Shown: positions 4,837-51,636, numbered from the stretch's first letter. The stretch: DNA of 64,000 bases from Bacteroidota bacterium (GCA_051715425.1 JBPXJS010000041.1:336360-400359); one strand, 5' to 3'. Notes: generated by a model not told the origin, from the sequence alone. Made by a program: numbers and translations.

Positions 4837-4846
4837 TTCAAAAAAC

Positions 4847-25103: not shown

Positions 25104-25631
25104 ATGAATACAAAAGAATTAAACAAACCCATTTATCTCGAAATTCTTACTGATGCAAATTTTTCTAAGAATTACGTGAACTGGATGAATGATTATGAAA
25201 TCACAAAATACCTGGAAAGCAGGTGGAGAGGTCAAACCATTGACAGTATTAAAGAATACCTCAAATACATGAATGAGAGCCCAAACAATTTTATGTTCGG
25301 CATTTTCCTGTCATCAAACAACCAACATATTGGCAATATTAAAATAGGTAGTATTGACTGGATACACAGAAACGGTGATGTAGGCCTGTTGATTGGCGAA
25401 CGATCCACCTGGGGTAAGGGTTATGCTACTGAAGCCATCAAACAAATTACCCATATAGCTTTCAAAAATCTAAACCTGAACAAACTGCTTGCAGGTATTT
25501 ATGTTGGCAATGAAGGTTCTTACAAAGCATTTATAAAAGCAGGATGGGAGGATGTAGGTCTTCTCAAAAAACATCGCTTCTCTGAGGGGAAATTTGTTGA
25601 CGAATACCTGGTTGAGGTTATTACCAATTAA
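25104..25631 (+). CDS. GNAT-family N-acetyltransferase (RimL-like). Candidate PseH.
   Basis: 175 aa. Acetyl-CoA-binding region ERSTWGKGYATEAIKQI. Located inside the pse gene block. Confidence 0.55.
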   Translation: MNTKELNKPIYLEILTDANFSKNYVNWMNDYEITKYLESRWRGQTIDSIKEYLKYMNESPNNFMFGIFLSSNNQHIGNIKIGSIDWIHRNGDVGLLIGERSTWGKGYATEAIKQITHIAFKNLNLNKLLAGIYVGNEGSYKAFIKAGWEDVGLLKKHRFSEGKFVDEYLVEVITN

Positions 25632-25644
25632 TTCAGGAAATACC

Positions 25645-26676
25645 ATGATCATTGCAAAACCAGATAATATCTTTTTCTTCACCGGCCCTGCGGTATGGAT
25701 ACCCGAAGCCATCAACTATGCATCTGCCAATGGTATTCAGTGCTATGTTTTTGCCGTTACAAGGCATCTGGAGGAAATTGTAGACAGGGAAAACAATATT
25801 ACTTTTAAAGATGTATTGGAAAAGAATCAGATAGCTTATTTCCATTGTGATGATATCAATACGTCTGCCGATTTTAAAAGACTTGCTACTAAAAACAGCA
25901 TTGGTATAGGCTTAGGGGAAGCGTATACTTTTACAACAGAAACGCTTGCACTGGTTGACCGGAAAATCTTTGATATGATGATTATCCGTATGCCAAAATA
26001 CAGAGGCGGTGCTCATTTTACCTGGCAAATTCTGCAACAAAACAGAATTGGAGCATGGTACCTTCAACTGGTTAATGAAGAAATGATTCCAGGTGGTTAC
26101 GATCACGCTGAAATTATAAAAACACACGAATATATTTTGCCTCAATGGGCTCGCACACCAGCCGACTATTTTAAAGTAGCTGATGTAGAAGGACTCAATC
26201 TTTTTAAGGGGTTTCTTAATGATATTGCATCAGGAAAAGATTTTCATCTGACATGGTTACAGGAGAATTTTTCATTATACCTGCCACGCCTGTATACGTT
26301 AAAACATGCCTTTATTGACTGGAGTTGGAGCGGAGAAGAAATAGAACGTTTTATATGTGCCTTTGATGATCCTTATGTTGGCGCCAGCACCTTTTGCAAT
26401 GGTACCAGGGTATTGATAAAAAAAGCCCAGTTTGAACGTGGAGAGGGGGCTTTCCATCCGTTTATTAATGGTATCATTTACCGTATTTTTAACGGAAAAA
26501 TATTTGTGGCAGTAAATAACGGAAGCATCATTATAGAAACAATTCAAACGGAAAGCGGAGAATCATACCTTCCGGAACTGAAACCAGGATACCGGTTATT
26601 TACTCCGCAGAGCAAAATAGAAGAGGCCATGATGTTTAATGCCGAATTTGATTCAAAAGGAATAAAAAATAAGTAA
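25645..26676 (+). CDS. Formyltransferase-domain protein (long form with a C-terminal extension).
   Basis: MIIRMPKYRGGAHFTWQILQ. The C-terminal region is paralogous to that of 4847-5860 (W...ER.ICAFD.PY.GA....N). Start set at MIIAKPD after the upstream stop (the track ORF starts at 25594). Confidence 0.6.
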   Translation: MIIAKPDNIFFFTGPAVWIPEAINYASANGIQCYVFAVTRHLEEIVDRENNITFKDVLEKNQIAYFHCDDINTSADFKRLATKNSIGIGLGEAYTFTTETLALVDRKIFDMMIIRMPKYRGGAHFTWQILQQNRIGAWYLQLVNEEMIPGGYDHAEIIKTHEYILPQWARTPADYFKVADVEGLNLFKGFLNDIASGKDFHLTWLQENFSLYLPRLYTLKHAFIDWSWSGEEIERFICAFDDPYVGASTFCNGTRVLIKKAQFERGEGAFHPFINGIIYRIFNGKIFVAVNNGSIIIETIQTESGESYLPELKPGYRLFTPQSKIEEAMMFNAEFDSKGIKNK

Positions 26677-27975: not shown

Positions 27976-29436
27976 ATGCTTTTTAACTCATTCGAGTTTC
28001 TGCTCTTCTTTCCTCTTGTTACCCTGATTTACTTTTTGATCCCGCATCGTTTCAGGTGGTTTCATCTGTTGCTTGCGAGTTGTGTTTTTTATGCGGCCTT
28101 TATTCCGGCCTATATCCTTATTCTGTTTTTTACCATCATCATAGACTATGTGGCTGGTATCCTCATTGAAAAAACGGAAGGCCCAAAACGAAAATGGTAT
28201 CTTACCATGAGCATCATTGCCAATGTGGGTGTTCTTGCCATATTCAAATATTACAACTTCTTTATAGGGAACATCAACGATTTGTTGTTGCTTATTGGTA
28301 TTCATAGTAATCCACTCCCCTATCTTGGTATTATTCTGCCCATTGGTCTTTCCTTTCATACATTTCAGGCGATGAGTTATACCATTGAAGTGTATCGTAA
28401 AAATCAGCCGGCAGAAAAACATTTTGGCATTTATTCTCTTTATGTAATGTTCTATCCACAACTTGTTGCCGGACCTATTGAGAGGCCACAGAATGTGATT
28501 CATCAGTTCCACGAGGAGAAAAAATTCGATTACAGCCTTGCGGTCAAGGGAATGCGACTTATGCTTATCGGGATGTTTAAAAAAGTGGTTATTGCCGACA
28601 GGCTTGCCCTGTTTACCAGTCCTGTATTTAACGACCCCGACCAGTATTCTTCCGTTGTACTTTTTATTGGTGCTGTATTTTTTGCCTTTCAGATTTTCTG
28701 TGATTTTTCCGGGTACTCTGATATTGCTTTGGGATCAGCTCAGGTAATGGGAATAACCCTCATGAAAAACTTTGATAAGCCGTATCATTCTCAATCCATA
28801 TCAGAATTCTGGAGCCGCTGGCATATTTCTCTTAGCACATGGTTCAGGGATTATTTATATATTACTCTCGGTGGAAACAGGGTGTCGGTTCCAAGATGGT
28901 ACTTTAACCTGTTTTTTGTTTTTCTGGTTAGCGGTTTCTGGCACGGTGCCAACTGGACTTTTATCATATGGGGTATGTTACACGGATTCTACCTGATATT
29001 TGCATTAGCAACCTCCGGATTTAGAAAGTCGCTGGCTGCTGCAGTAAAACTGGATAAATTGCCCCGCATTCAATCCGTTTTAAATATACTTATCACATTT
29101 GTACTTGTAACCCTGGCCTGGATCTTTTTCAGGGCCAATACCGTAAAAGAAGCAATGTTCATCATCACTTCTGTGCTCCATATTCCGCTTGATATTTTAT
29201 CAGGATCTGCTAACCTGTTAAGCAAATTTCCTGTTACTGCCAATACCTTTCTCATCTCAGTAGCCATGATTATTCTCCTTGAAACATATCACACCTTACA
29301 TTCTAATGCAAAAATGATATCCCTGTTTTCAAAACCTAAATCTTACTTACGTTGGTCAGCATATTACATGCTTATAATAGGTTTGGTTTTTTTAGGAGTA
29401 TGGGGAGAACAACAATTTATTTATTTCCAGTTTTAA
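27976..29436 (+). CDS. MBOAT-family membrane-bound O-acyltransferase (AlgI/DltB-like).
   Basis: 486 aa, multi-TM. Conserved region FWSRWHISLSTWFRDYLYI with the catalytic His. Confidence 0.85.
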   Translation: MLFNSFEFLLFFPLVTLIYFLIPHRFRWFHLLLASCVFYAAFIPAYILILFFTIIIDYVAGILIEKTEGPKRKWYLTMSIIANVGVLAIFKYYNFFIGNINDLLLLIGIHSNPLPYLGIILPIGLSFHTFQAMSYTIEVYRKNQPAEKHFGIYSLYVMFYPQLVAGPIERPQNVIHQFHEEKKFDYSLAVKGMRLMLIGMFKKVVIADRLALFTSPVFNDPDQYSSVVLFIGAVFFAFQIFCDFSGYSDIALGSAQVMGITLMKNFDKPYHSQSISEFWSRWHISLSTWFRDYLYITLGGNRVSVPRWYFNLFFVFLVSGFWHGANWTFIIWGMLHGFYLIFALATSGFRKSLAAAVKLDKLPRIQSVLNILITFVLVTLAWIFFRANTVKEAMFIITSVLHIPLDILSGSANLLSKFPVTANTFLISVAMIILLETYHTLHSNAKMISLFSKPKSYLRWSAYYMLIIGLVFLGVWGEQQFIYFQF

Positions 29437-35111: not shown

Positions 35112-36524
35112 TTGAATAATTCCCGGGATTACTTATCGTACTTACTTCGTATAGAAAAACTTATTTCCGATAAACACCGGCATATTTTCAGCGCACTGTT
35201 TATACAATTCTATCTCTATCTAACAGGAAGTGTACATTCGAAGAAAACCCCAAAAAGAAATATCACCTTTTACCTAGCCAAGTTTTTGAGATTTATCCAA
35301 CTCACATTGTTAAATCTTAAATCAGCAAACGCGGATATAGTGGTATGGATAGCAGACAAATCGCATATTAACGAGGTTTCTGCTGTTTGTGTGAACCTAA
35401 TGGGCAATGGAAAAAAAGTATTAATTGTTTCAGCAAAAAATGATTTGCTCAAAAATCCTGCACTTCAACCCTTTCAAAGGTTATTCATTCCAATTCCTTT
35501 CACCAAACCAATGCCAGAATCAGAAGTTGATGAATTTGTTAAGGCATTTACAAGTGCTGAAGTATTGACCGGTGAGCTAAAGCTGAATGAGACCGAAATG
35601 AACCTTTTTAAACAATGCCTGACAGACTGGGGAAATAATACAAAAAGGCTAGGTGAAATTTTAAATCAACTCCTCAAAAGGATCAAGCCGGAAGCTGCCA
35701 TAATTGGTTATGATATCCCACCTGATGGAAGAACCTTTACCCTGGTATGTAAAGAAAATAATATTAAAACATTTATGATCCAGCATGGTTCAGTTGCTGT
35801 TAAAAATGGCATATTCAGCGGACATAAAGTTGACCATTACATGGTTTATGGAGAACTCACAAAATCTATTTTAAAAGATGTAAATTGTGAATCAGAAATA
35901 TATGTAGCCGGCCCGCCCTATTTAGACCATATAAAGACAAAGAAAAAAGCCGATATCCGGCAACAAACCAGCAGAAAAAAAAGAATTCTAGTAGCCTTTT
36001 CAGGACCGGGGCATTTTACCACATTGGAACATCACCAATTATCTATCAAGGTTCTGATTACTTTAGTTAAGCAAATGCCTGATACAGAATTCTTCCTTAA
36101 ACTTCACCCCAAAGACAGTTTAACATACTATACCGATCTGTTATCTTATTCTAATGTTTTTGATAAACTCCCAAACAACAATAGCACTGATATTTTCGAT
36201 TGGCTTGCCCATAGTGACCTTTTGATTACAGGAGCTTCTACTGTGTGCCAGGAGGCAATGATTATAAATATTCCGGCCATTTGCCTCGACCTCTTAAACC
36301 ACTACTCCAGCGTGGAGTTTATAAAAGATAAAGCGGTGTATTACAATACCTCTGAAACTCAATTAAGCGATACCATTAATAACCTATTTAATGGTATTGA
36401 GGATTTACAAATAAAACAAAATGCCATAGGGCATGTGGAACATTTTTTTGGCAGGCTTGATGGAAAAGCGTCAACCCGTTGTGCCGACTATATACTCAAA
36501 CAATTAGACAGAAATGGAAAATAA
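35112..36524 (+). CDS. TagF/KpsS-like GT-B fold transferase (Glyphos_transf / Capsule_synth superfamily), hypothetical.
   Basis: FMIQHGS, FFLKLHPKD (conserved K-x-HP) and LLITGAST. Confidence 0.35.
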   Translation: MNNSRDYLSYLLRIEKLISDKHRHIFSALFIQFYLYLTGSVHSKKTPKRNITFYLAKFLRFIQLTLLNLKSANADIVVWIADKSHINEVSAVCVNLMGNGKKVLIVSAKNDLLKNPALQPFQRLFIPIPFTKPMPESEVDEFVKAFTSAEVLTGELKLNETEMNLFKQCLTDWGNNTKRLGEILNQLLKRIKPEAAIIGYDIPPDGRTFTLVCKENNIKTFMIQHGSVAVKNGIFSGHKVDHYMVYGELTKSILKDVNCESEIYVAGPPYLDHIKTKKKADIRQQTSRKKRILVAFSGPGHFTTLEHHQLSIKVLITLVKQMPDTEFFLKLHPKDSLTYYTDLLSYSNVFDKLPNNNSTDIFDWLAHSDLLITGASTVCQEAMIINIPAICLDLLNHYSSVEFIKDKAVYYNTSETQLSDTINNLFNGIEDLQIKQNAIGHVEHFFGRLDGKASTRCADYILKQLDRNGK

Positions 36525-37309: not shown

Positions 37310-39163
37310 ATGTGTGGAATTGCCGGTATAATCGGAAATAACGCTTCAGAAAAAAGCATTGATGAGATGCTTAAGGCTACCAGGCACAGGGGGCCGGATG
37401 ATTATGGCATAGCCTCCTTTGAAGGCGCTGCTATCGGCATGAACCGCCTGGCCATCATTGATCTTTCTGCACTTGCTCATCAGCCCATGCTAAGCAAGGA
37501 TGGAAGATATGCCATTGTATATAACGGAGAAATATATAACTACCTGGAAATTAGAAAAGAACTCGAAAAACAAGGTGAGTTCTTTTTATCCAACTCTGAT
37601 ACCGAGGTTCTTTTAAGGGCTTTCCTTGTTTACGGTAAGGCTTGCCTTTCAAAAATACGGGGCATGTTTGCCTTTGTGATCTGGGATAAAGAAACACAAA
37701 CAGCTTTTGGAGCCAGAGATCACCTCGGCATAAAACCATTTATTTATAGTGTAAGGGATAATAACCTGATTTTTTGTTCAGAATTAAAAGGTTTTCTTGC
37801 CCTAAACAGCTACAACTGGATTCCCGATGACTACTCCGTGTCAGAGTATCTGATGCGTGGATACATTACAGCTCCATCCACCATACTCAAGGATATTTAC
37901 TCCTTGCTTCCGGGAAACTGTTTTGAGTTCAAAAATGGGGAATTAACTATTTCGACATACTGGGACTTAAAAGAAAACGAGCTACCGGCTCTGCCTGAGA
38001 AAGAAATGCTAAGCACCATCAAACAACATGTACTTGATGCGGTTAAAGAACAACAGGTTTCTGATGTTCCGTTGGGAGTATTTCTTAGCGGTGGGCTCGA
38101 TTCTTCCATAGTAGTGTCTGCCATGAGAGAATCCGGTATAAAAAAGATAAAAACGTTCTCCATAGGTTTGCAAAATGATTCAACTGAGCTTGATGAATCA
38201 TCTGATGCCCGCATTACTTCAGCCTTCTTTCAAACGGATCATTATGAGTTTATGCTAACGGGTGAAGAAATAACATCAAAATTTCATCATTATTATAAAA
38301 TGCTGGATCAGCCATCCGTTGATGGTTTAAACACCTATCTGGTAAGCGAAATGGCGAGAAAGGAGGTTACTGTGGCATTGTCAGGATTAGGAGGAGATGA
38401 GTTATTTGGAGGATATAGCTGGCAAACCAAACCATACCTTACATCGGCTTATAAAAAAACTGCGGCAAACATACTAAACCCAATAAAAAACTTTCTTCCA
38501 GGCTCACTTTCAAATAAAGTTAAAAGTACCTTACTGATGAATGATATGCATGATTATTACAAAAACCTGCATACAACTTTTTCAGAAAATGAGTGGGACA
38601 CCGTGCCCAATTCACCCATTAAAAAAGAATCTATTTTAGATAAAGTACTTTCTGCATACCAGCTTAAAGTGGCAGATAAAATGAGGCAGATTACGTATTA
38701 TGACATGAAAGTTTTTATGGCTTCGCGGTTATTAAGAGATAATGATGCGGTAGCAATGGGGCATTCCCTTGAAGTACGTTTTCCATTTATTGATTACCGG
38801 CTGTGTGAGTTTGCATGGAATATTAAAACAGAACAGAAAAGAAACGGATTTTCTGCCGACCCGGGATATGGAAATGGAACAAAAAAACTGCTCTATGAAG
38901 CGTTCAGGAATCAGCTCCCTCCTGATATTGCAAAGAGAACAAAGAAAGGATTTAAATTGCCTTATCAACTTTGGTTTAAAACTACACTGAAGAATGAAGT
39001 AGATCTAATCTGGACAAGCCCGTACCTGAGCAAATATATCAGGAAAGAAAAACTTGTTGAGATAAAACAAGGTTGGGAAAACGGGAAGGTGAACTGGGTA
39101 ATTATTCTTCAACTATTAACCCTTGACGGATGGTTCCGTCATGTTTATGAGCGCACCCCTTAA
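37310..39163 (+). CDS. Asparagine synthetase B-family glutamine-dependent amidotransferase (PseA/WbpS-like).
   Basis: MCGIAGI N-terminal nucleophile Cys. PP-loop FLSGGLDSS. 617 aa. Confidence 0.85.
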   Translation: MCGIAGIIGNNASEKSIDEMLKATRHRGPDDYGIASFEGAAIGMNRLAIIDLSALAHQPMLSKDGRYAIVYNGEIYNYLEIRKELEKQGEFFLSNSDTEVLLRAFLVYGKACLSKIRGMFAFVIWDKETQTAFGARDHLGIKPFIYSVRDNNLIFCSELKGFLALNSYNWIPDDYSVSEYLMRGYITAPSTILKDIYSLLPGNCFEFKNGELTISTYWDLKENELPALPEKEMLSTIKQHVLDAVKEQQVSDVPLGVFLSGGLDSSIVVSAMRESGIKKIKTFSIGLQNDSTELDESSDARITSAFFQTDHYEFMLTGEEITSKFHHYYKMLDQPSVDGLNTYLVSEMARKEVTVALSGLGGDELFGGYSWQTKPYLTSAYKKTAANILNPIKNFLPGSLSNKVKSTLLMNDMHDYYKNLHTTFSENEWDTVPNSPIKKESILDKVLSAYQLKVADKMRQITYYDMKVFMASRLLRDNDAVAMGHSLEVRFPFIDYRLCEFAWNIKTEQKRNGFSADPGYGNGTKKLLYEAFRNQLPPDIAKRTKKGFKLPYQLWFKTTLKNEVDLIWTSPYLSKYIRKEKLVEIKQGWENGKVNWVIILQLLTLDGWFRHVYERTP

Positions 39164-40349
39164 TATCGTATACATTCATCAGGATGGTCATATAACCGGA
39201 TCTGCTATCAGCTTAAAAAATCTGATCAGCGGATTTTTACCGGGTCAGGTAAATCCAACACTAATCATTCCAACTGAAGGGCCTTTGAGAGCTTTTATGG
39301 AAGAAGCGGGCATTCAGGTGATTTGTGCTCCCTTTCAATCATTTTGGACCTTTCCTGGTCCGAGGTGGTTTTCGAGAAATAATTTTAAGATGTACAAGGC
39401 TCTGATACCCGACAAGAAACTTTTGAAGTTGATAAGGGATCTTAAACCGGATATTATTCATATTAATGATAAAGCTGCAATGGCTGCCGGTATTTCCCTC
39501 AGAAAGTCTGGTATTCCTATTATACAACACCTGAGAAGCAACTTTCATAAAACTAAATTCAGGTTTAATAAATGGTTATCTGTATGGCTTACTAAAAGAT
39601 ATGCTGATTTATTCATCGCTATTTCAGAAGATGAAACGGATGGTTTTGATCGTGTATCCAACCTTCATATCATTTACAATACCATACATCCCTCCCTCTC
39701 TGCAAAAGCTCTTGCCAATAAGAAAAATATCCGTGAAGAGTTTAATATCCGTTCAGAAGATGTGGTTGTTTGTTATGTGGGCCTTTACAACGAATTAAAA
39801 GGTGCATGGGATTATATAGATACATGTGGTCGATTAAAGAAAAAACTGCCCCACAAAAAATTCCATTTCTTTTTCATTGGTCCCATTCCCTCACCGGATG
39901 TTAAACTAAATGAACATGGCACCCTTATCAACCCATACGATAAGGCAAAAAAACTTGCTGATGAAGCAGGAATAAGAGAAGAGATGATATTCACCGGATA
40001 CAGAAAAGATGCCCTGAGCCTGATTGCTGCTTCTGATCTGCTGTTGATTATGAATAAGCAGGGCGTGCTGGGCCGTCAACCCTTTGAAGCCATGTCGGTA
40101 GGTGTTCCTGTAATTGCAGTTGCAGGGCAAAGCAGCAAAACCAATATAGTTCGTTCAGGGGTAAATGGTATTCTTCTTAAAGAATATTCACCGGGGCTTA
40201 TTGCAGAAGAAGCTGCCCGTATGCTCTCTGACCGGAACTATTGCCATCAACTTGGCAATGCAGGCAAAGAAATAGCTGACACTGAATTTAACCCACTGAT
40301 TAACTCACAGAAGGTAATCAAACTTTACCACAGCCTCATAAAAAATTGA
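39147..40349 (+). CDS. GT4-family (GT-B) glycosyltransferase.
   Basis: The C-terminal GQPFEAMSVGVPVIAV matches the GT4 E-x7-E region. Start is uncertain (39123, 39141 or 39147) and overlaps the asnB-like stop. Confidence 0.7.
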   Translation: MSAPLNIVYIHQDGHITGSAISLKNLISGFLPGQVNPTLIIPTEGPLRAFMEEAGIQVICAPFQSFWTFPGPRWFSRNNFKMYKALIPDKKLLKLIRDLKPDIIHINDKAAMAAGISLRKSGIPIIQHLRSNFHKTKFRFNKWLSVWLTKRYADLFIAISEDETDGFDRVSNLHIIYNTIHPSLSAKALANKKNIREEFNIRSEDVVVCYVGLYNELKGAWDYIDTCGRLKKKLPHKKFHFFFIGPIPSPDVKLNEHGTLINPYDKAKKLADEAGIREEMIFTGYRKDALSLIAASDLLLIMNKQGVLGRQPFEAMSVGVPVIAVAGQSSKTNIVRSGVNGILLKEYSPGLIAEEAARMLSDRNYCHQLGNAGKEIADTEFNPLINSQKVIKLYHSLIKN

Positions 40350-41209
40350 AACCCGCCAACCCGTCTTTACAAATTGAAGGTCGCTCAGGATGTGAGCTCA
40401 AAATCATACAGCGTGATGGTGGTATATTTGTACGCAAATATTCCAGTAATGAATTGTATAACGAAAGGCTTGTTAAACAACAAGAGAAACAGGCCTCATT
40501 CAATGACCCAACATTAGTGCAATTCGGTTTTTCAACCCCCCAGGTCTTTCAAACCGGCAACGAGGGCAACCTGTTTTGGTTTGAGATGAATTATGTTGGT
40601 GGTGAAAAGTATTCCAACTACCTTCAAAGAATAAATAAACCGGAAATCGACCAACTGATTAACCGTTTTATTAAATACTTTGAGTTTCAGTTTGCCAAAG
40701 CGGAAACGATTGATGTACCCGTATTAATCATTCAGGATAAAATAAAATCCCTTGAAACTGCGGTAAATAATAACGCTGAAATAAATGCGGTACTGAGAGA
40801 AAAGCTCCTGTCTTATTTGCAAAAAAATATTCCTTCACATACAATCGGTATAGGGCAATGTCATGGAGACCTTACTCTCTCCAATATGCTTTTTCTCAAC
40901 AACGGACATATCGTTACCTTTGATCTTCTTGATTCCTTTATTGAATCACCTGTTATTGATTTTGTGAAACTCAGACAGGATACCCGATACGGCTGGTCCA
41001 TTTTTATTGAGGATATTGACACCAATACAAGGCTTAAGCAGGTATTACGTTACCTGGATAATGCGCTGGTTGAATATGCTCAAAGCAAATCCGATCTTAT
41101 TCACTGGGAGCATTATCTTACGGTGTTTAACTTTGCCAGAATATTGCCTTACGCAAAAGACCTCAGGGATTTACATTTTATAGAAAACAAATTGAATAAC
41201 TTAATATAA
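40346..41209 (+). CDS. Aminoglycoside-phosphotransferase-fold kinase (choline/ethanolamine kinase or anomeric sugar kinase, LicA/NahK/AmgK-like).
   Basis: Catalytic loop GQCHGDLTLSNMLF (H-G-D-x4-N), followed by the IVTFDLLDS metal-binding Asp. Confidence 0.7.
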   Translation: MKPANPSLQIEGRSGCELKIIQRDGGIFVRKYSSNELYNERLVKQQEKQASFNDPTLVQFGFSTPQVFQTGNEGNLFWFEMNYVGGEKYSNYLQRINKPEIDQLINRFIKYFEFQFAKAETIDVPVLIIQDKIKSLETAVNNNAEINAVLREKLLSYLQKNIPSHTIGIGQCHGDLTLSNMLFLNNGHIVTFDLLDSFIESPVIDFVKLRQDTRYGWSIFIEDIDTNTRLKQVLRYLDNALVEYAQSKSDLIHWEHYLTVFNFARILPYAKDLRDLHFIENKLNNLI

Positions 41210-41210
41210 T

Positions 41211-42287
41211 ATGATACTTATTGTACCTATGGCTGGCCGATCGAGCCGCTTTCCAAATATGAAACCCAAGTGGATGCTAACACACCCCAGCGGGCGTTTT
41301 ATGGTAATTGAAGCTATTAACGGGCTGAACCTTTCAGACTTTAGCAAAATTGTTTTTGTTTGCCTGAAAGAGCATGAAGAATTACACGGATTTACCAAAG
41401 GGTTCAGGGAAGAGCTTGAATCTTTAGGAATAAATGATAAAAGCGAAATATTATACCTTGAAACTACGACAAGACACCAATCTGAAACCGTGGCCAAGGC
41501 GATTGAACACTACCATATAACGGGTCCAGTGTTTGTTAAAGATTCGGATAATTATTTCACAGTTAGGTATACTGGAAATAATACCGTTTGTTTTTACGAC
41601 CTTAATTCATCGGGGTTAATAAAGCCTAAAAACAAAAGTTACATTTCATTTGATGAACATGGTTATATCAACAATATTGTAGAAAAGCAGGTAATCAGTT
41701 CGAGTTTCTGCGTTGGAGGTTATGGATTTGCCTCAGCAGGTGAGTTTATTTCCTATATGAATAAGATTGACAATGAAGGAGAGGTATACCTTAGCAATGT
41801 GATCTTTGAAATGATTCTTGACGGTAAGAAATTCAGCAGTACCATAGTAGATCATTACAAGGATTGGGGAACCCTTGAAGATTGGGATCGGTTCAAGCGT
41901 TCGTATGCCACCTTGTTTTTGGATATTGACGGCACTTTGGTGAAAAACTCCTCAGCTCATTTTCCTCCTTATATTGGGAATACACCAGCCCTGACCGAGA
42001 ATATAGAGATCATTAAAAAGCTGTATGAGAGCGGTAAATTTCAGGTGATACTTACTACATCACGTCCGGAGAAATACAGAAAGGAAACCGTAAACCAAAT
42101 GGAAAAAGAAGGCATTCCTTTCAACCACCTCATCATGGGGCTTTATCACGCTAAGAGAATTATTATAAATGATTACAGCAAATCAAATCCGTACAAAAGC
42201 TGTGACGCCATCAACCTGAAAAGGGATGCACAGGATCTTAAAGAGATATTAAGGGAATCATTGGGAATTGATTACGAAGAAATTTAA
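41211..42287 (+). CDS. Fusion of an N-terminal sugar-phosphate / phospho-alcohol nucleotidyltransferase (LicC/MurU-like) and a C-terminal HAD-family phosphatase.
   Basis: N-terminus ILIVPMAGRSSRF (G-x-G-x-R NT motif). C-terminus LFLDIDGTLVKNS (HAD DxDxT) and ILTTSRPE. Confidence 0.65.
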   Translation: MILIVPMAGRSSRFPNMKPKWMLTHPSGRFMVIEAINGLNLSDFSKIVFVCLKEHEELHGFTKGFREELESLGINDKSEILYLETTTRHQSETVAKAIEHYHITGPVFVKDSDNYFTVRYTGNNTVCFYDLNSSGLIKPKNKSYISFDEHGYINNIVEKQVISSSFCVGGYGFASAGEFISYMNKIDNEGEVYLSNVIFEMILDGKKFSSTIVDHYKDWGTLEDWDRFKRSYATLFLDIDGTLVKNSSAHFPPYIGNTPALTENIEIIKKLYESGKFQVILTTSRPEKYRKETVNQMEKEGIPFNHLIMGLYHAKRIIINDYSKSNPYKSCDAINLKRDAQDLKEILRESLGIDYEEI

Positions 42288-42294
42288 CTACAAT

Positions 42295-43224
42295 ATGAAT
42301 TACACTACACAAAAATTGGTTCCAGGTAAACTCAATGATTTACACTGGCTTCACAAAAAATCCTTTAACTCAAAATATGATTTCACCTACTTTAAGGATA
42401 AATACAATACACAAGCTTACCACGAAGACTTAATCGGCTTCTTTAGCTATGCTGATGAAACACCTGCCGCATATTATGGCATTTTTCCGATAGCGCTTAT
42501 GTATAACGGCACCAAGGTAATTGCCTCCCAATCTGGTGACACCATGACCCATCCTGATCACAGAGGTAAAGGTCTATTTGTTGACTTAGCAAAGAAAACA
42601 TACCAATTTGCCGGGGAATCAGGTATCAAGTTTGTGTTAGGCTTTACAAACACAAAATCACACCGGGGTTTTGAAAAACTTGGATGGACCTTCACAGGGA
42701 AATGGAAAGTGTTTACTATTGAAAATAAGCTGCCTGATACCTCTATTGTATTTAGAAAATTTCCTTTCTTAAAAAGAATATTCACAAATTGGTTAAAAAA
42801 GTACGTTGTAAAATTTGATCAAATAAAATGGGAATCGTTCATACCAGAAGGAGTTAAAGGTTATGTATTAAAAGACAGTGATTTTTTTGAATATAAAAAA
42901 TACAGTAATGCGCAATTAGTAAGTATCGATGGCTTTCATTTATATCTAAATATAAATCCATACCTGTTGCTTGGTGATGTTTCATATTTTCCTTATGATA
43001 AAATGCCTGCTTTTTTAGCTGTACTGCAAAAAATCGCAAAAAAATCTCTTGTAAAAAAAGTAAGCATAAGTATTTCTGAGAACCACTGGTTAACTGATTA
43101 CTTTAACAAGTCAGGCTTTACGCCTCAGGAATCTTCCAGTACAATTGGTTATTATAATTTTAGTACAGATCACTTTGACTTTAAATCCATCATGCACATT
43201 CAAGGTGATGCTGATTATTTTTAA
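42295..43224 (+). CDS. GNAT / FemAB-like acyltransferase (paralog of 22320-23318).
   Basis: See the paralog alignment for 22320-23318. Start set at MNYTTQ after the upstream stop (the track ORF starts at 42268). Confidence 0.4.
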   Translation: MNYTTQKLVPGKLNDLHWLHKKSFNSKYDFTYFKDKYNTQAYHEDLIGFFSYADETPAAYYGIFPIALMYNGTKVIASQSGDTMTHPDHRGKGLFVDLAKKTYQFAGESGIKFVLGFTNTKSHRGFEKLGWTFTGKWKVFTIENKLPDTSIVFRKFPFLKRIFTNWLKKYVVKFDQIKWESFIPEGVKGYVLKDSDFFEYKKYSNAQLVSIDGFHLYLNINPYLLLGDVSYFPYDKMPAFLAVLQKIAKKSLVKKVSISISENHWLTDYFNKSGFTPQESSSTIGYYNFSTDHFDFKSIMHIQGDADYF

Positions 43225-43227
43225 TCT

Positions 43228-44688
43228 ATGAATATCATTATAGAGTCTACGGTACTGGAAAAGTGGCAACATTCATTGCTTTCTCATCTTCATGAGCATT
43301 CCTCTGATGAAATCAGAATATTCTCATTAGGATTAAAAAATAAATCATCAGGCGGATTAATAAACCTTATTACATTCTTTGAAAATCGCATCAGAAAAAT
43401 TAATAACCTGTCATATAAAGCAACTCCACTTCAAAATGTTGAGGTTTTAAGCATAAGTGACTTAAAATCCTCCTTAGCGGGAAATTCTATAATCAATCTG
43501 ACTGAAACAGACATTTGTGCTTCAGGAGTTATTCCAAAGGATATTTCTGTTTCCGAAATATATTACGCAACAGAAAGCAGTCAATTTACGCGTAGTCCTT
43601 ATGTGATATTTACAAATTCAGACACATTATATATTAAAGCAGTAACCAAATTAAATGGGGAAATAATTCATTCTGCTACGACAAGAACCAGCAATAACCA
43701 GTATTTTACGAGCAAATCTCTTAGTGACCTGAAATGGAACTCTCTAGAACTTTTAAAGCTTTTACTTAAAACTAAAGACCAGGGTAAACAGGCAGAATCG
43801 ATAAAAGTCAATTCCTGGAAACCTCTGATGATTTTGTTTCCAGCAATGCAGAAAACTTTGAATTTGTTTATATCAAAATTTTTCACCTCCAAAAACACCA
43901 AATGGACAATTGCATTAAAGAATAAAAATACAAATATCACTAGCACCCTTATTCCTGAAAAAGATTACTTTCTGGCAGATCCTTTCATAGTTGAGGAAGA
44001 TTCACAATTACACCTTTTTGTTGAGCATTTTTCCTATCCATTAAATAAGGGGTTGCTTTCTTACATTAATATTGAAAACAATTCCATATCCGAACCCGTA
44101 TTAATTCTGGAAGAGCCTTTTCACCTCTCCTACCCTCACGTATTTTTTCATGAAGGCTGTTATTACATGATTCCTGAAACCCGTCAAAGCAATTCTGTAA
44201 GGCTATATAAATGTATTGAATTTCCCTTAAAATGGTCTTTTTTGAAAACCATTATTGATCATACTCAACTTTCAGATGTTACACTTTTTAAACACGACAG
44301 TATTTACTGGATGTTTGCCAATACATGCGTAGAAAACACCAATAACAGTATAGAAAAGCTACACCTTTTTTATACAGACGATCCAATTAATAGTGAGTGG
44401 CAATCTCACCCATTAAATCCTATTGTGAGTGATGTGTGTAGTTCCAGACCCGCAGGTAATCTCTTTGTAAAAGAGGGTAAAATTTACCGTCCCTCACAGG
44501 ATTCGGGTAAAACATATGGGTATGCGGTAAACATTAATGAAATAGTTTGCCTTTCTAAAAACAATTACGAAGAAAGACTTATTCGTAAGATAAGTCCTGA
44601 TGATGTTTCGTTAAATGCACTTGCCACGCATACTTATAATCAAACAGCCTCCTATGAGGTATTCGATATCATAACAAAATTAAAATGA
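43228..44688 (+). CDS. Hypothetical protein. The C-terminal half looks like a beta-propeller or GH-like sandwich domain.
   Basis: 486 aa. No confident motif. The C-terminal segment FLADPFIVEED...YYMIPETRQ...IYWMFAN recurs in glycan-locus proteins of unknown function. Confidence 0.3.
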   Translation: MNIIIESTVLEKWQHSLLSHLHEHSSDEIRIFSLGLKNKSSGGLINLITFFENRIRKINNLSYKATPLQNVEVLSISDLKSSLAGNSIINLTETDICASGVIPKDISVSEIYYATESSQFTRSPYVIFTNSDTLYIKAVTKLNGEIIHSATTRTSNNQYFTSKSLSDLKWNSLELLKLLLKTKDQGKQAESIKVNSWKPLMILFPAMQKTLNLFISKFFTSKNTKWTIALKNKNTNITSTLIPEKDYFLADPFIVEEDSQLHLFVEHFSYPLNKGLLSYINIENNSISEPVLILEEPFHLSYPHVFFHEGCYYMIPETRQSNSVRLYKCIEFPLKWSFLKTIIDHTQLSDVTLFKHDSIYWMFANTCVENTNNSIEKLHLFYTDDPINSEWQSHPLNPIVSDVCSSRPAGNLFVKEGKIYRPSQDSGKTYGYAVNINEIVCLSKNNYEERLIRKISPDDVSLNALATHTYNQTASYEVFDIITKLK

Positions 44689-45734
44689 ATTCACCTTTCT
44701 TTTCCATTTGCATCCCAAACTTCAACTATGGGAATTACCTCCATGAAACGATAGACAGCGTTCTTAGCCAGGATTTTAATGATTTTGAAATTTGTATTGC
44801 TGATAATAAAAGTACTGATAACTCCTGGGAAGTCATTACTGAATACACGAATAAACATAACAACATCAAAGCAATACAGAACACTCAAAATCTTGGATTT
44901 GCTGGTAATTTAGACGCGGTAAGCAAAATCTCAACCGGGAAATGGATGATTATGCTGTCTTCTGATGATTTAATGGAACCAGGGGCATTAAGCCTTTATT
45001 ATAAATGTATCACCAAAGATAATAATACCTTTAATGTATACAATTCAAGTGTAACTCAGTTTAACAATGACAAACCAGAGGAGCAAAAACATATAGGATA
45101 TAGGAAGCCTATCTGGAATAACACCGATAAATCTGAACATTGGACTACCATATTGGGATGCGAAACATATACCAAAAGCTGCAACAAATTACTCCATCTT
45201 GGATTGAAGACATCTAAGAGCCCTTTTAATTTTGTGTCCTTATGCTATTCACGGGAAATTTATAATCTTGTTTCAGGATATGGATCCACTCGCATGATTA
45301 ATCCTGATAAGTGGTTTCACTTTCGCTTGTGTTCGGTTGCCAATGAGGCAATATATATGGATCAGGTTTGTTTTAAATACCGTTGGCATAACAATAACCA
45401 AACAGCACAACAAACGCAGTCGGGAGCGTTGAAGTTTTGGATTGACGAATACAGAACAAGTTTTGAAGTTGACAAAGACTTGCTTCAAAAAATAGGGTTA
45501 AATCAACTGGATGTAAAAAAAGCGTATATCGAAAATGTAATATTGCCTTATATGCTCAGGCATCTTAGATTAAAAGAAAGGAAAATGTCCTGGCGGATTC
45601 TATATTTAGGACTTGCTACTTATCCTGAAATTTGCTTTAGAGATTTTAGATTTTATTTCCTGTTTATTTTATTAACTCTCGGACCACTTGGGAGTTTGAT
45701 TTCAAAACTTTACACCTCCTCCCCTAATAAATGA
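44685..45734 (+). CDS. GT2-family glycosyltransferase.
   Basis: FSICIPNFNYGNYLHETIDSVLSQ and MLSSDD (DxD). Confidence 0.8.
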   Translation: MNSPFFSICIPNFNYGNYLHETIDSVLSQDFNDFEICIADNKSTDNSWEVITEYTNKHNNIKAIQNTQNLGFAGNLDAVSKISTGKWMIMLSSDDLMEPGALSLYYKCITKDNNTFNVYNSSVTQFNNDKPEEQKHIGYRKPIWNNTDKSEHWTTILGCETYTKSCNKLLHLGLKTSKSPFNFVSLCYSREIYNLVSGYGSTRMINPDKWFHFRLCSVANEAIYMDQVCFKYRWHNNNQTAQQTQSGALKFWIDEYRTSFEVDKDLLQKIGLNQLDVKKAYIENVILPYMLRHLRLKERKMSWRILYLGLATYPEICFRDFRFYFLFILLTLGPLGSLISKLYTSSPNK

Positions 45735-48244: not shown

Positions 48245-49037
48245 AACAGGTTTTTTTAACCTTTGCCGGTCAGTTTATAAAAATAAAAGAAGCATTTCTA
48301 TTCTTCTGCATGGAACCTATGGGAAAACCTTCCGTGATATTCCTCATAAGTTGCATTTTGGAATGCATACGGATGACCTTGAAAAAATGATTTTATGGTT
48401 AAAGAAGGAGAATATTCCCTTAATATCAACCACTGAATTACTTGCCGGTAAACCAGGTCTCAATATCAGTCTTGATGATGGGTATGCAAATAACTATGAA
48501 TATGGACTTAAGGTTTTTGAAAAAATGGAATCCCCATTTACCATTTTTGTTACTACCAGACATATCATTGAAAATGACCGCTGTGATATTCTTGACTACT
48601 TTACAGAAATAATACAAGAACAAAAAATAGCTGTTTCTGACGAAGCGGGCTATGAACTTTTCTGGGGTTTAACTCCGGATCAGGTTAAAAAACTGAGTGT
48701 GCATCCCTTAGCTGAATTGGGCTGCCATACACATAACCACCCGCATCTGAATCTGTGTTCAGAAAATGATATAAATAATGAAATTAGTTTATCTTCTGAC
48801 ATATTGAAAAATTTAACAGGTGAACAGCCAAAAACTTTTTCATATCCCTTTGGAGATTATGACCAGCGGACAATCAACAGTGTTATTAAAAAGGGATTTA
48901 TTGCTGCCTTTGCGGTAAAACCATCACTCAGGAACAATACACTCTTTGAACTGCCAAGAATAGGTATATACAATAACTCACCCGCTTACTTGTCTGCAAA
49001 ACTCAATTTCATATATCACTCTATCAGATGCGCATAA
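48222..49037 (+). CDS. Polysaccharide deacetylase (NodB/CE4 family).
   Basis: ISLDDGYANN (NodB motif 1). GCHTHNHPHL and FSYPFGD motifs. Confidence 0.65.
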   Translation: MLLNILHKTGFFNLCRSVYKNKRSISILLHGTYGKTFRDIPHKLHFGMHTDDLEKMILWLKKENIPLISTTELLAGKPGLNISLDDGYANNYEYGLKVFEKMESPFTIFVTTRHIIENDRCDILDYFTEIIQEQKIAVSDEAGYELFWGLTPDQVKKLSVHPLAELGCHTHNHPHLNLCSENDINNEISLSSDILKNLTGEQPKTFSYPFGDYDQRTINSVIKKGFIAAFAVKPSLRNNTLFELPRIGIYNNSPAYLSAKLNFIYHSIRCA

Positions 49038-49825
49038 CCATCTATACTTCACTTCAAACTGACTGGCTGGCATTGCACCAGATCAACTCCATTAAAAAAG
49101 AGTTTGAAAACGTAACAGTAGTTGCAGTGAACCGCTCTGAAAAAGAGTTTCTACAGGAACGGATTCAGACACAAAAAAAATTAATAAAAAAAAGGGGACT
49201 CATTTGGTTCATTAAGAAAAGAGTCGATAATTATTTTCTGCGCCCATGCTCTTCTGATTGGAACAGGCATCTTGAGGAACAAAAACAGATACAAAAAGCA
49301 CTACTTAAGACAGAGGAAATACCTTATGACCACATTGTTTCATCTGTTAATGGGAAAAACAGCGCACAAACAATATTGGATACAGAACCTGACCTCTTAA
49401 TTCAGGCAGGCGCAGGAATACTGAAATCTAATATTTTTAATATACCAGCCATTTGCACGCTAAATGTGCATGGTGCTATAGCTCCCCGTTTAAGAGGAGG
49501 AAGCTCCATTTTCTGGTCTTACTATTTTGGACGACCAGACTGGCTTGGGGTAACAGTGCATCAAATTGATAAAGGAATTGATACCGGTGCGGTTTATAAA
49601 AGGCAGACATTATCTTATACACCAGGAATTCACCCGGCTGGTAAGTTGGTAGAATCTGCTATTACCGGAACAGATTTGTTATGTTCTGTAATTGGTCAAA
49701 TTCAGAAAAGAGATATTATTGCACAAAAAATAGAAGAAGAAAGTACATACCTTGGGTTTTACAACTCAAAACAATACAATAGCTTAAAAAACAATAACTG
49801 GTACCCGATTAAAACAACTAAATAA
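49028..49825 (+). CDS. Formyltransferase-domain protein (short form).
   Basis: NVHGAIAPRLRGGSSIFWS and VTVHQIDKGIDTGAVY. Confidence 0.65.
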   Translation: MRITIYTSLQTDWLALHQINSIKKEFENVTVVAVNRSEKEFLQERIQTQKKLIKKRGLIWFIKKRVDNYFLRPCSSDWNRHLEEQKQIQKALLKTEEIPYDHIVSSVNGKNSAQTILDTEPDLLIQAGAGILKSNIFNIPAICTLNVHGAIAPRLRGGSSIFWSYYFGRPDWLGVTVHQIDKGIDTGAVYKRQTLSYTPGIHPAGKLVESAITGTDLLCSVIGQIQKRDIIAQKIEEESTYLGFYNSKQYNSLKNNNWYPIKTTK

Positions 49826-51636
49826 TGTCAATCATCTTAGGAATTAACTTTAGTCACGACTGTTCCGTATCCCTGCTGAAAAACGGAAAAGTTCTGGCAT
49901 CCATTGAGGAAGAAAAAACTAGTCGTATCAAACAGGATTTCGGCTGGCCCAAAACAGCAGTAGAAAGATTGCTTAAAGAGCATCATATTAAACCAGAAGA
50001 GGTAAACACCATTGCGTTTGGCAGTAAGTTCTTTTTAAGCATCAGCAAGAACGAAGTAAAATACCGTTTTAATAAAACGCAGTTAAACAGAAATGGCGAA
50101 ATATTAAACCGCATTACTTCTTTTCTGGGTTTTACCGATTCAAATTTTACTGATAAAAATACAGACACATTTGAAGAGGAGTTGAAAAAAGAAGGATTTA
50201 TTCATGCGAAAGTTCAATTTTTTAACCATCACCTTGCTCATGCTGCAAGTGCGTGGTATGCCGCTCCATTTGAGTGCGATCTCGTATTTACTGCAGATGG
50301 TCATGGCGATGGGGAATCAATCACATTTTATGAACCTGATTCCGTAGAAGGATTAAAACTGCTGCAATCATTTGGTCACGAAGTTTCTGTAGGTCAATTC
50401 TACAGCGGAATTACCAAACTGCTTGGTTTCAGACCCACAAGGCATGAAGGAAAGATTACAGGATTAGCCGCTTATGGTAAGCCCGGTGAATTACTGGAAA
50501 AGTTCAGGGGAGCATTTCATTTCGAAAATGGAATACTCACCCGGTTTCCTTTTAATGAATCTGAAACATTGTGGAAACAATATAATCTTGATAGTAACCT
50601 TGATCTGAAAACGAAAGTTAACTTTCAGTCTGAATCAGCTGTTGGTCAGCAATACGCTAAAAATGCATGGATACTTGATGCATGGCTGAAAGAAGTAACA
50701 GCAGGATACAGCAAAGAAGATATAGCATATGCCTGTCAGAAAGTAACAGAAGAAGTAATGGTGCAATTGATGGATTATGCCATTCACAAATTTAAAGGTG
50801 GCAAAAAAATCAAACTTGGTCTTGCAGGCGGGGTATTTGCTAATGTAAGGGTCAATCAGCTCCTGTTCGAACACCCTTTGGTAGAAAATGTTTTTGTTCA
50901 ACCCGCAATGGGAGATTCGGGTTTATCTATTGGGGCTGTTTATCTGGCCGATATTGAGGATCATAAAAATAAGCTTACAAACCAATATCGTTTTACTCAT
51001 ACTTATCTTGGACCAGACTATACCAATGATCTGGAAACCTTTTTAAACAACATTGATAAAGATAAATACATTGTAGAAGATATGGGAAATGAAGCACCTA
51101 AAAGGGTTGCCAAATTAATGCAGGATAATACCATAGTAGGCTTTTGGCACGGCAGTATGGAATGGGGCCCCCGTGCCCTTGGAAAACGTTCTATGATCCT
51201 CAATACGTTTGTTAGAAGCGTGAACGACACCCTCAATCAACGATTAAACCGTACTGAATTTATGCCATTTGCTCCTTCAGTTATTGATTATATGGTAAAA
51301 ACATATATGCCTAAATATGAGGAAAAGGATATTGCTGCCGATTACATGACAATAACCTACGATGTTGATCCTAAATATCACGACCAGTTGCAGGCCGTGG
51401 TTCATGTAGACGGAACAGCCCGACCACAAGTGGTAAAAAAAGAAACCAATCCCTATTATTATGCTATAATAGATGAGTTTTATAAACTGACCGGATGCGG
51501 GGCGATTGTAAATACAAGTTTCAATGTTCATGAAGAGCCCATTGTATCATCTCCTGAATCAGCCTTCAGGGCTCTTGTTGATCATCGGATTGATGCGCTT
51601 GTTCTTGACCAATTTCTCATCGTACATAAAAAATGA
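49825..51636 (+). CDS. NodU/CmcH-family carbamoyltransferase (Kae1/HypF-like fold), O-carbamoyltransferase.
   Basis: 603 aa. MSIILGINFSHDCSVSLL N-terminus. NHHLAHAASAWY (H-x-H-x-H metal site). C-terminal GCGAIVNTSFNVHEEPIV is the NodU carbamoyl-AMP domain. Confidence 0.8.
   Translation: MSIILGINFSHDCSVSLLKNGKVLASIEEEKTSRIKQDFGWPKTAVERLLKEHHIKPEEVNTIAFGSKFFLSISKNEVKYRFNKTQLNRNGEILNRITSFLGFTDSNFTDKNTDTFEEELKKEGFIHAKVQFFNHHLAHAASAWYAAPFECDLVFTADGHGDGESITFYEPDSVEGLKLLQSFGHEVSVGQFYSGITKLLGFRPTRHEGKITGLAAYGKPGELLEKFRGAFHFENGILTRFPFNESETLWKQYNLDSNLDLKTKVNFQSESAVGQQYAKNAWILDAWLKEVTAGYSKEDIAYACQKVTEEVMVQLMDYAIHKFKGGKKIKLGLAGGVFANVRVNQLLFEHPLVENVFVQPAMGDSGLSIGAVYLADIEDHKNKLTNQYRFTHTYLGPDYTNDLETFLNNIDKDKYIVEDMGNEAPKRVAKLMQDNTIVGFWHGSMEWGPRALGKRSMILNTFVRSVNDTLNQRLNRTEFMPFAPSVIDYMVKTYMPKYEEKDIAADYMTITYDVDPKYHDQLQAVVHVDGTARPQVVKKETNPYYYAIIDEFYKLTGCGAIVNTSFNVHEEPIVSSPESAFRALVDHRIDALVLDQFLIVHKK

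Follow-up and report, generated by a model that had tools for sequence, protein, structure and literature searches.

Several bacterial routes to nucleotide-activated sugars combine a kinase with a nucleotidyltransferase (NT), in some cases together with a phosphatase. The GDP-D-glycero-alpha-D-manno-heptose pathway (GmhA, HddA, GmhB and HddC) and the ADP-heptose pathway of HldE and GmhB employ an anomeric kinase, a HAD phosphatase for the distal phosphate and an NT. In the MupP/AmgK/MurU bypass of peptidoglycan recycling, a HAD phosphatase, a sugar kinase of the APH fold and an NT together yield a nucleoside diphosphate (NDP)-sugar without a mutase. The Bacteroides enzyme FKP (L-fucokinase/GDP-fucose pyrophosphorylase) and the NahK plus GlmU routes obtain an NDP-sugar from a free sugar through a kinase and an NT. 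Phosphorylation at the anomeric position is known for the APH-fold enzymes NahK, AmgK, maltokinase and MTR kinase. Here, two adjacent genes, encoding a kinase and a protein in which an NT domain is fused to a HAD domain (NT-HAD), have been analyzed in silico within a stretch of 64,000 nucleotides from a Bacteroidota bacterium (GCA_051715425.1, JBPXJS010000041.1:336360-400359), referred to below as the window. This cassette is probably a self-contained, horizontally mobile module of three activities, supplying a donor, likely an NDP-sugar, for a neighbouring glycosyltransferase. Systems of this kind are known, but neither the protein family with its fused architecture nor the product has been characterised, and the literature on WavE, kinase/NT/HAD fusions and anomeric kinases yielded no characterised cassette member.

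The window forms a single long surface-glycan locus on the plus strand, which comprises about 60 genes at a GC content near 38%, starts with a NusG/UpxY-like gene (687-1193) that fits Bacteroidota, and ends with an initiating sugar transferase. The gene pair had been proposed in a preliminary description, and it proved to be real: both open reading frames (ORFs) are present exactly where stated there, the kinase at 40346-41209 and NT-HAD at 41211-42287, one nucleotide apart, which confirms their tight coupling. The same boundaries of the kinase gene were obtained in an independent gene call on an identical contig. Judged by sequence comparison, neither is a chance ORF, because full-length homologues are numerous for both: 1621 NT-HAD matches in a 90%-identity database, nearly all of 352-362 aa, and 105 for the kinase. 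The window proteins hold every family-invariant residue except for one conservative change in the kinase, F194L.

The single kinase sequence gave no significant match against NCBIfam and PDB sequences, and its match to Pfam APH (PF01636) is marginal (24.8 bits at a cut-off of 23.2) and confined to residues 149-210. An AlphaFold2 (AF2) model built from 30 homologues reached a predicted local distance difference test score (pLDDT) of 93.5 and a predicted template-modelling score (pTM) of 0.90. The Foldseek search with this model placed 25-hydroxysteroid kinase, APH(3')-Ia and APH(2'')-Ia on top (E about 1e-6, template-modelling (TM) score 0.5-0.63, probability 1.00). According to the model, the kinase adopts the APH/eukaryotic-like bilobal protein-kinase-like fold. 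In an alignment of 127 sequences the catalytic set is at least 95% conserved and consists of (i) the Gly-rich G12xSG15; (ii) the ATP lysine K31; (iii) G174-D175...N180; (iv) D193; H173 of the HGD motif is conserved in 85-95% of the homologues. The H-G-D-x4-N loop noticed earlier is present as C172-H-G-D175-L-T-L-S-N180, with D175 as the catalytic Asp. The invariant positions of the alignment are G12, S14, G15, K31, R41, Q45, K48, Q49, K132, G174, D175, N180, D193, D196, D205, K208, Q211, D212, W217, R265 and Y269. Five of these, R41, K48, K132, K208 and R265 (the last two in the C-terminal part), are basic residues beyond the catalytic set, and all are retained in the window protein. The narrower label LicA/NahK/AmgK-type is not supported; no specific affinity was detected, and the nearest named families (Bud32, CotS, APH(3'), homoserine kinase II and Kdo kinase) lie far below their cut-offs. 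NahK and AmgK were absent from the NCBIfam matches of 30 family members, from the PDB profile matches and from the Foldseek top 50. The choline-kinase model PF01633 gave no match to the window kinase at E<=0.01, and precomputed PF01633 matches are limited to a handful of distant relatives.

The N-terminal domain of the 358-aa fusion protein had been read as an NT, and the fold is borne out: all of the top 50 PDB matches to the AF2 model of NT-HAD (mean pLDDT 78.8) in Foldseek are nucleotidyltransferases, the best with E 1.8e-13. The list is led by 4evw, followed by inositol-1-P cytidylyltransferase, GlmU, UGPase, KdsB, RmlA and GDP-mannose pyrophosphorylase. Among solved structures, 4evw comes closest, with a profile E of 1.7e-6, a Foldseek E of 1.8e-13 and a TM score of 0.74 on the target. 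Across 145 sequences a signature conserved to at least 95% comprises P6-M-A-G-R-S-S-R-F...P19-K20, K110-D-S-D-N, E158-K159, G169-G-Y-G-F and D218-W-G-T221. The class-motif residues within it are A8-G9-x-S11-x-R13...K20, D111/D113, E158-K159 and D218-W-G-T221, and by analogy with RmlA and GlmU they may correspond to the N-terminal G-x-G-x-R...K signature, an acidic metal site and the sugar-phosphate motifs. The domain is not specifically LicC- or MurU-like, as had been suggested; Pfam nucleotidyltransferase models gave no match to the fusion protein at E<=0.01, and NCBIfam only a match of 0.0022 to an archaeal NT/acetyltransferase model.

The C-terminal domain (residues 233-358) is a HAD domain with a DxDGT motif, in agreement with the HAD phosphatase described at first; it is small and has no cap insertion. 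An Asp at the +2 position of HAD motif I marks the phosphatase or phosphomutase type. The DIDGT of motif I occupies residues 238-242 (D238-I-D240-G-T), with D238, D240 and G241 at least 95% conserved. Candidate motifs II-IV, assigned by position and conservation, are T282-T283-S-R285, K315/R316 and N320-D321, motif IV being N-D rather than D-D; further invariant residues are N264, H313, N326, S330 and R338. The best family matches are sub-threshold, namely Acid_phosphat_B (23.7 bits, cut-off 27), HAD_SAK_2 (21.4, cut-off 27.5) and BT0820 (21.4, cut-off 165). A profile match to the Pnkp1 phosphatase domain (4xrp) was obtained at E 1.4e-4, and the GmhB family gave no match to the window HAD domain.

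The genes for the two proteins are seldom separated. A kinase homologue is located directly upstream of NT-HAD, on the same strand, in 65 of the 71 genome loci; in five of the other six the upstream DNA is absent, and the sixth (locus L016), whose roughly 860 nt of upstream DNA carry a methyltransferase, is a possible exception. The kinase is upstream also in 71 of 80 metagenome loci, where the remainder are mostly contig ends and L104 and L150 apparent exceptions, and in all 33 full-length viral loci save the giant-virus metagenome-assembled genome (MAG), where the kinase is divergent. In two Woesearchaeota the gene order is reversed and the genes are still adjacent. The junction in relatives is typically a start/stop overlap, usually of 4 bp. 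NT-HAD is better conserved than the kinase, with a median identity to the window protein of 51% versus 32% and the higher value in 139 of 139 loci. All three domains are joined in a single polypeptide in protein P0352 (647 aa; hhalign probability 99.7%), and in P0239 (610 aa) NT-HAD is fused at its C-terminus to a c8/WavE-like domain. A distant, unfused version resides on the conjugative Legionella sainthelensi plasmid pLA01-117_113k (L076, 5678-9833) beside a Tn3 transposase, as an island of five genes: APH-like kinase, 118-aa HAD, 244-aa NT, WavE and WavE. The near-obligatory linkage, the triple fusion and the unfused Legionella triad show that the kinase, NT and HAD activities work as one unit.

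Other plasmids, from Ruegeria, Acetobacter, Pseudomonas, Rhizobium and Hirschia (L073, L074, L075, L077 and L078), carry distant standalone relatives of the NT domain that the annotation pipeline PGAP names "glycosyltransferase family 2 protein". Their partners are HAD phosphatases, a second NT-like or glycosyltransferase family 2 (GT2) gene product of about 250 aa, GDPD-type phosphodiesterases and WavE; a protein of about 106 aa, annotated as a cupin in the Pseudomonas plasmid, also recurs with them. This set makes up a separate, uncharacterised module related to the cassette, and the designation GT2 is probably a misannotation.

Besides the kinase, the cassette has no universally conserved neighbour, and a limited number of families recur next to it. 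The window GT2 has full-length orthologues (30-49% identity) that immediately follow NT-HAD in L001, L002, L036, L028 and L086-L095 and stand close to it in L003, L004 and L026. This GT2 group, which resembles ordinary inverting NDP-sugar GT2 (GT-A) enzymes, adjoins NT-HAD on its downstream side in Bacteroidota, Moraxellaceae, Chloroflexia and numerous metagenome loci; in Cyanobacteria it lies close by. An extended short-chain dehydrogenase/reductase (SDR) subfamily characterized by an ASTSAVYENN motif usually comes immediately after the cassette; in L120 and L137 it is inserted between kinase and NT-HAD. Its nearest PDB relative is 6dnt ("NAD-dependent epimerase/dehydratase"), which we take to be a UDP-GlcNAc 4-epimerase, followed by UDP-glucuronate decarboxylase (UXS) and GalE. 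Bona fide GMD genes (445-568 bits at an NCBIfam cut-off of 415 bits) stand beside the cassette in several independent lineages, and so do Fcl-like, Rmd-like, RmlC-like and NDP-hexose C-methyltransferase genes. A canonical G-x-G-T-R-L nucleotidyltransferase was found in none of the fetched GMD-containing loci, so NT-HAD is the only in-cis candidate for nucleotide-sugar supply there. Recurrent neighbours further include TylF/Methyltransf_24 O-methyltransferases, WavE (PF07507), for which no solved relative was found, and a related unnamed family, c8. Members of c8, of about 317 aa and without a Pfam match, are encoded directly upstream of the kinase in gut Alphaproteobacteria (e.g. L040:4193-5143) and start with a WavE-like motif, a beta-strand-Gly pattern followed by TW(S/T). 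The c8-like domain fused to NT-HAD in P0239 suggests that c8 is a transferase for the cassette product.

In the proposed scheme, the substrate of the APH-fold kinase would be a sugar or sugar-phosphate, and the site of phosphorylation most likely the anomeric position, as in the APH-fold enzymes NahK, AmgK, maltokinase and MTR kinase. The HAD domain would take off a second, non-anomeric phosphate, either from the bisphosphate product, as GmhB does, or from a phosphorylated precursor before the kinase step, as in the case of MupP. The NT domain would join the resulting sugar-1-phosphate with an NTP to form an NDP-sugar, which in the window the inverting GT2 (44685-45734) would use in repeat-unit assembly, a role that WavE may take in other loci. 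We infer the order of the steps, the anomeric site and the sugar-nucleotide nature of the product. An NDP-sugar is the best reading of the product, with the linked SDR, the GMD, Fcl, Rmd, RmlC and C-methyltransferase neighbours and the partner GT2 counting for it, and the general idea of an activation pathway put forward in the preliminary description fits all the evidence. The invariant basic residues (R41, K48, K132, K208 and R265 of the kinase; R285, H313, R316 and R338 of the HAD domain) would favour anionic substrates, a sugar-phosphate or bisphosphate, and hence a heptose-like order. The formation of an NDP-N-acetylhexosamine via anomeric phosphorylation, also raised earlier, is no more than a possibility.

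Several points weigh against this interpretation. There is no characterised member, and no substrate-specific family match was obtained in Pfam or NCBIfam. The hints at the nucleotide conflict, as GMD and Fcl hint at a GDP-manno-type sugar and the tightly linked SDR at a UDP-sugar. A housekeeping ManC encoded elsewhere in the genomes with GMD loci could feed GMD. A GmhA-like isomerase is found in one lineage only, and members of its family do not as a rule accompany the cassette. Should the WavE partners be phosphotransferases, the product might be something other than a classical glycosyl donor. The HAD model is only moderately confident, with pLDDT below 50 at residues 313-333, and its Pfam matches are below the gathering thresholds.

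The GMD loci lend themselves to another, unlikely explanation, in which the cassette is a non-orthologous replacement of ManB/ManC or HddA/GmhB/HddC, converting mannose-6-phosphate (or D-glycero-D-manno-heptose-7-phosphate) via the 1,6- (or 1,7-) bisphosphate and the 1-phosphate into GDP-mannose (or GDP-heptose). True GMD genes directly follow NT-HAD in L042, L047 and L048; GMD, C-methyltransferase and Rmd-like reductase genes directly precede the kinase in L011, L079, L080 and L103; GMD occurs with Fcl-like genes in L081 and L084; GMD is present, too, in L020, L052, L060, L068, L108, L137 and viral L171, L196 and L198. The lack of a canonical NT in the GMD loci agrees with such a replacement. 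However, only about 10-17% of the loci contain GMD, a dedicated conserved cassette is not obviously needed for a nucleotide sugar as common as GDP-mannose, and the most tightly linked SDR resembles UDP-sugar enzymes. As regards the heptose variant, the three activities of the cassette are those required after GmhA, and a GmhA-like SIS gene belongs to the same operon in L079, L080 and L103; against this, tblastn searches of the 64-kb window and of about 150 further loci revealed no SIS/GmhA gene, and relatives of the L079 SIS gene adjoin classical GmhB-like HAD or CTP_transf_like genes where the cassette is absent. With the SIS gene missing from the window and about 150 loci, a general heptose assignment is not supported, and it is kept as a minor rival only.

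It is improbable that the cassette activates a non-sugar or alditol substituent (choline, ethanolamine, glycerol including 2-glycerol, or inositol), the X-phosphate being turned into CDP-X and then into a phosphodiester by a phosphotransferase. The APH superfamily does include choline/ethanolamine kinases, a few relatives have weak PF01633 matches, inositol-1-P cytidylyltransferase ranks second among the structural matches of the NT domain, and the chemistry of WavE is unassigned; LicD is present in L042-type loci, and the window encodes a weakly TagF-like protein (35112-36524). Nevertheless, LicD in those loci already has a TagD-like cytidylyltransferase beside it, the TagF-like gene is no conserved companion of the cassette, the recurrent partners (GT2, extended SDRs, GMD, C-methyltransferases) act on NDP-sugars, and the fused phosphatase would be left with no obvious role. 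The phosphocholine/ethanolamine option of the preliminary description is accordingly disfavoured, as the partners are inverting GT2, WavE, extended SDRs, GMD, Fcl and C-methyltransferase, and LicD is confined to one lineage with its own TagD-like enzyme. It is very improbable that the N-terminal domain is a GT-A glycosyltransferase, and the fusion a glycoside-phosphate synthase/phosphatase comparable to MpgS/MpgP, GpgS/GpgP or the PRPP-dependent ribofuranosyltransferase-phosphatase, with the kinase supplying a phosphorylated acceptor or donor. Glycosyltransferase-HAD fusions are the rule in compatible-solute and ribofuranose pathways, and the distant standalone relatives that PGAP names GT2 proteins do adjoin HAD phosphatases. 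Yet the invariant P-x-A-G-x-S-x-R-F...P-K loop is an NT signature (G-x-G-x-R...K) absent from GT2 enzymes, E-K and D-W-G-T match the sugar-1-P-binding motifs of RmlA/GlmU-type enzymes, and the Foldseek top 50 contain nucleotidyltransferases exclusively.

The family is abundant. An exhaustive profile search of 50%-identity representatives gave 3684 NT-HAD matches at E<=0.001 and 498 at E<=1e-30. In a scan of one genome per species, carriers were found in Bacteroidota, Cyanobacteria, Acidobacteriota, Verrucomicrobiota, Planctomycetota, Chloroflexota, Nitrospirota, Firmicutes, Actinobacteria, Proteobacteria, Campylobacter, candidate phyla radiation (CPR) bacteria and Woesearchaeota, and the closest relative is a Chitinophaga pinensis MAG (86% identity). 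The fusion had been called unusual; it is indeed unannotated, nearly all named matches in the 90%-identity database being "hypothetical", but with 498 clusters at the stricter threshold it is not rare. Homologues with an N-terminal extension of about 200-250 aa occur in Dothideomycete fungi (Patellaria atrata, Trichodelitschia bisporula and Dothideomycetidae sp.), and the fungal proteins P0279, P0294 and P0291 (also P0260 and P0269) are annotated as hypothetical or "HAD-like".

Viruses carry the cassette as well. In IMG/VR, 40 viral contigs contain an NT-HAD relative, full-length in 33, one of which is the giant-virus MAG (L202), and NT-HAD is present in the deposited sequence of Marine virus AG-345-E15 (MH319741.1, L210). 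The marine myovirus contigs (L177-L186; L185:2050-10759) are organized in the order: a 587-aa gene, a WavE-like 467-aa gene, kinase, NT-HAD and T4-type tail sheath. The 587-aa protein resembles cyanophage genes annotated as FkbM methyltransferase/beta-mannosyltransferase; the sheath gene, located 0.5-2 kb past NT-HAD, is 46% identical to the sheath of Flavobacterium phage immuto. Because the same contigs carry this T4-type gene, the cassette is truly virus-borne. A distant NT-HAD-like gene of cyanophage Bellamy was set aside as uninformative, its cluster having a separate classical heptose set (isomerase, kinase and NT). In a wider and tentative extension of the NDP-sugar reading, the cassette would make an undescribed nucleotide-activated sugar, or a known one by an undescribed mutase-independent sugar-bisphosphate route, as a portable donor supply exchanged by bacteria, archaea, fungi and marine myoviruses, which in phages would remodel host or virion glycans.

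Table 1. Features of the cassette and adjoining genes in the window, with positions counted from its first nucleotide
Feature	Position	Strand	Details and basis
GT4 glycosyltransferase directly upstream of kinase	39123..40349	+	Pfam; synteny in the two closest loci only
APH-fold (eukaryotic-like) small-molecule kinase	40346..41209	+	287 aa, TTG start; ORF, Pfam, AF2 model, Foldseek
TTGA start/stop overlap, TGA of GT4 gene with TTG of kinase	40346..40349	+	sequence
Kinase catalytic loop C172-H-G-D-L-T-L-S-N180 (HGDx4N)	40859..40885	+	sequence, alignment
Kinase metal-binding segment D193-L-L-D196-S197 (DFG/IDxD equivalent)	40922..40936	+	alignments
TAA-T-ATG junction of kinase and NT-HAD, 1-nt spacer	41207..41213	+	sequence
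NT domain, aa 1-232 of fusion protein	41211..41906	+	signature motifs, 4evw profile match, Foldseek
Small capless HAD phosphatase domain, aa 233-358, plus stop codon	41907..42287	+	motifs, weak family matches
GT2 glycosyltransferase, probable user of cassette product	44685..45734	+	Pfam Glycos_transf_2; orthologues beside NT-HAD elsewhere

L001 and L002 carry orthologues of the GT4 glycosyltransferase, about 40% identical, immediately ahead of the kinase; the gene is not conserved beyond these loci. A GNAT gene (Acetyltransf_9, 42268-43224) and a gene for a GINT1_N protein (PF24793, E 1.6e-41, 43228-44688) are inserted between NT-HAD and GT2; the GINT1 N-terminal domain is a plant one, and a second Acetyltransf_9 paralogue is encoded at 22320-23318. 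The pair recurs, with its order swapped, only in the closest locus, L001 (8604-10411), and both genes were rejected as pathway members on the ground that they recur in one related locus only.

Decoration by N- and O-acyl groups appears to be unusually densely encoded in the window. It holds five proteins with formyltransferase N- or C-terminal domains (4817-5860, 21662-22291, 25594-26676, 49028-49825 and 57620-58372), a carbamoyltransferase (49825-51636), an MBOAT protein (27976-29436), two polysaccharide deacetylases and several GNATs. A HisH-like glutamine amidotransferase (19242-19859) and a HisF-like cyclase (19862-20647), identified by Pfam, are paired within the glycan locus, an arrangement of the WbuY/WbuZ type known from acetamidino-sugar formation. 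Three NeuB nonulosonate synthases (1916-2938, 14954-15934 and 23325-24383) are accompanied by two CTP_transf_3 genes (9733-10428 and 15931-16668), and since three NeuB genes face two CMP-transferase genes, one nonulosonic acid pathway of the window seems to have no activating enzyme of its own. An animal-type nonulosonate route (kinase, NeuB, HAD and CMP-synthetase) was considered for the cassette and rejected, NeuB being beside it in one of 71 genome loci and five of 80 metagenome loci.

Two further observations concern other loci. In the marine Bacteroidetes single-cell genomes of L079 and L080 (3407-5973), genes for S-adenosylmethionine (SAM) synthetase and S-adenosylhomocysteine hydrolase are embedded in the glycan operon directly upstream of GMD, C-methyltransferase, Rmd-like reductase, kinase and NT-HAD, so that the methyl-cycle supply is locus-encoded. 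The GmhA-like SIS family (P0377-P0496; L166-L168), with proteins of about 208 aa and 60-69% mutual identity, is encoded at the start of freshwater and marine Bacteroidota polysaccharide loci, right after Wzz, often adjoining GmhB-like HAD or small CTP_transf_like genes.

The family, with its 3684 clusters at 50% identity (E<=0.001), spans Bacteria, Archaea, fungi and viruses and is unannotated. Once its product is assigned, thousands of glycan loci would become annotated together, and the often-linked, uncharacterised WavE family would gain a function. The two proteins would represent a compact enzymatic means of making the donor, provided that this is a rare sugar nucleotide or is reached without a mutase. 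Virus-driven glycan remodelling, as yet unstudied, is suggested by the copies in phages.

Compared with the described systems, the cassette recalls the heptose pathways, as the same anomeric kinase, distal HAD phosphatase and NT would be at work; with the GDP-heptose pathway it would have in common the surface-glycan loci and a product able to feed GMD-like dehydratases. There are differences as well. The cassette kinase has an APH fold and not that of GHMP kinases or ribokinase, its HAD domain is PNKP/BT0820-like and capless and not of the GmhB HAD-IIIA type, and GmhA is lacking except in one lineage; HldE fuses the kinase to the NT, whereas here the phosphatase is fused to the NT. No sequence-level affinity of the cassette to AmgK or MurU was detected; its HAD is fused to the NT, and its context is that of polysaccharide, phage and fungal loci and not of cell-wall recycling. 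FKP consists of an NT fused to a GHMP kinase without a phosphatase, in contrast to the cassette, where the kinase is separate and of the APH type and the phosphatase is obligatory. The Bacteroides alternative inositol-lipid cluster (NT, CDP-alcohol transferase and HAD), having no kinase, is a different system. The PMAGxSSRF signature of the NT domain is common to 4evw, a structural-genomics entry of predicted function ("nucleoside-diphosphate-sugar pyrophosphorylase" of Vibrio cholerae RC9); this protein, about 20% identical, is a standalone NT of 255 aa without a HAD domain.

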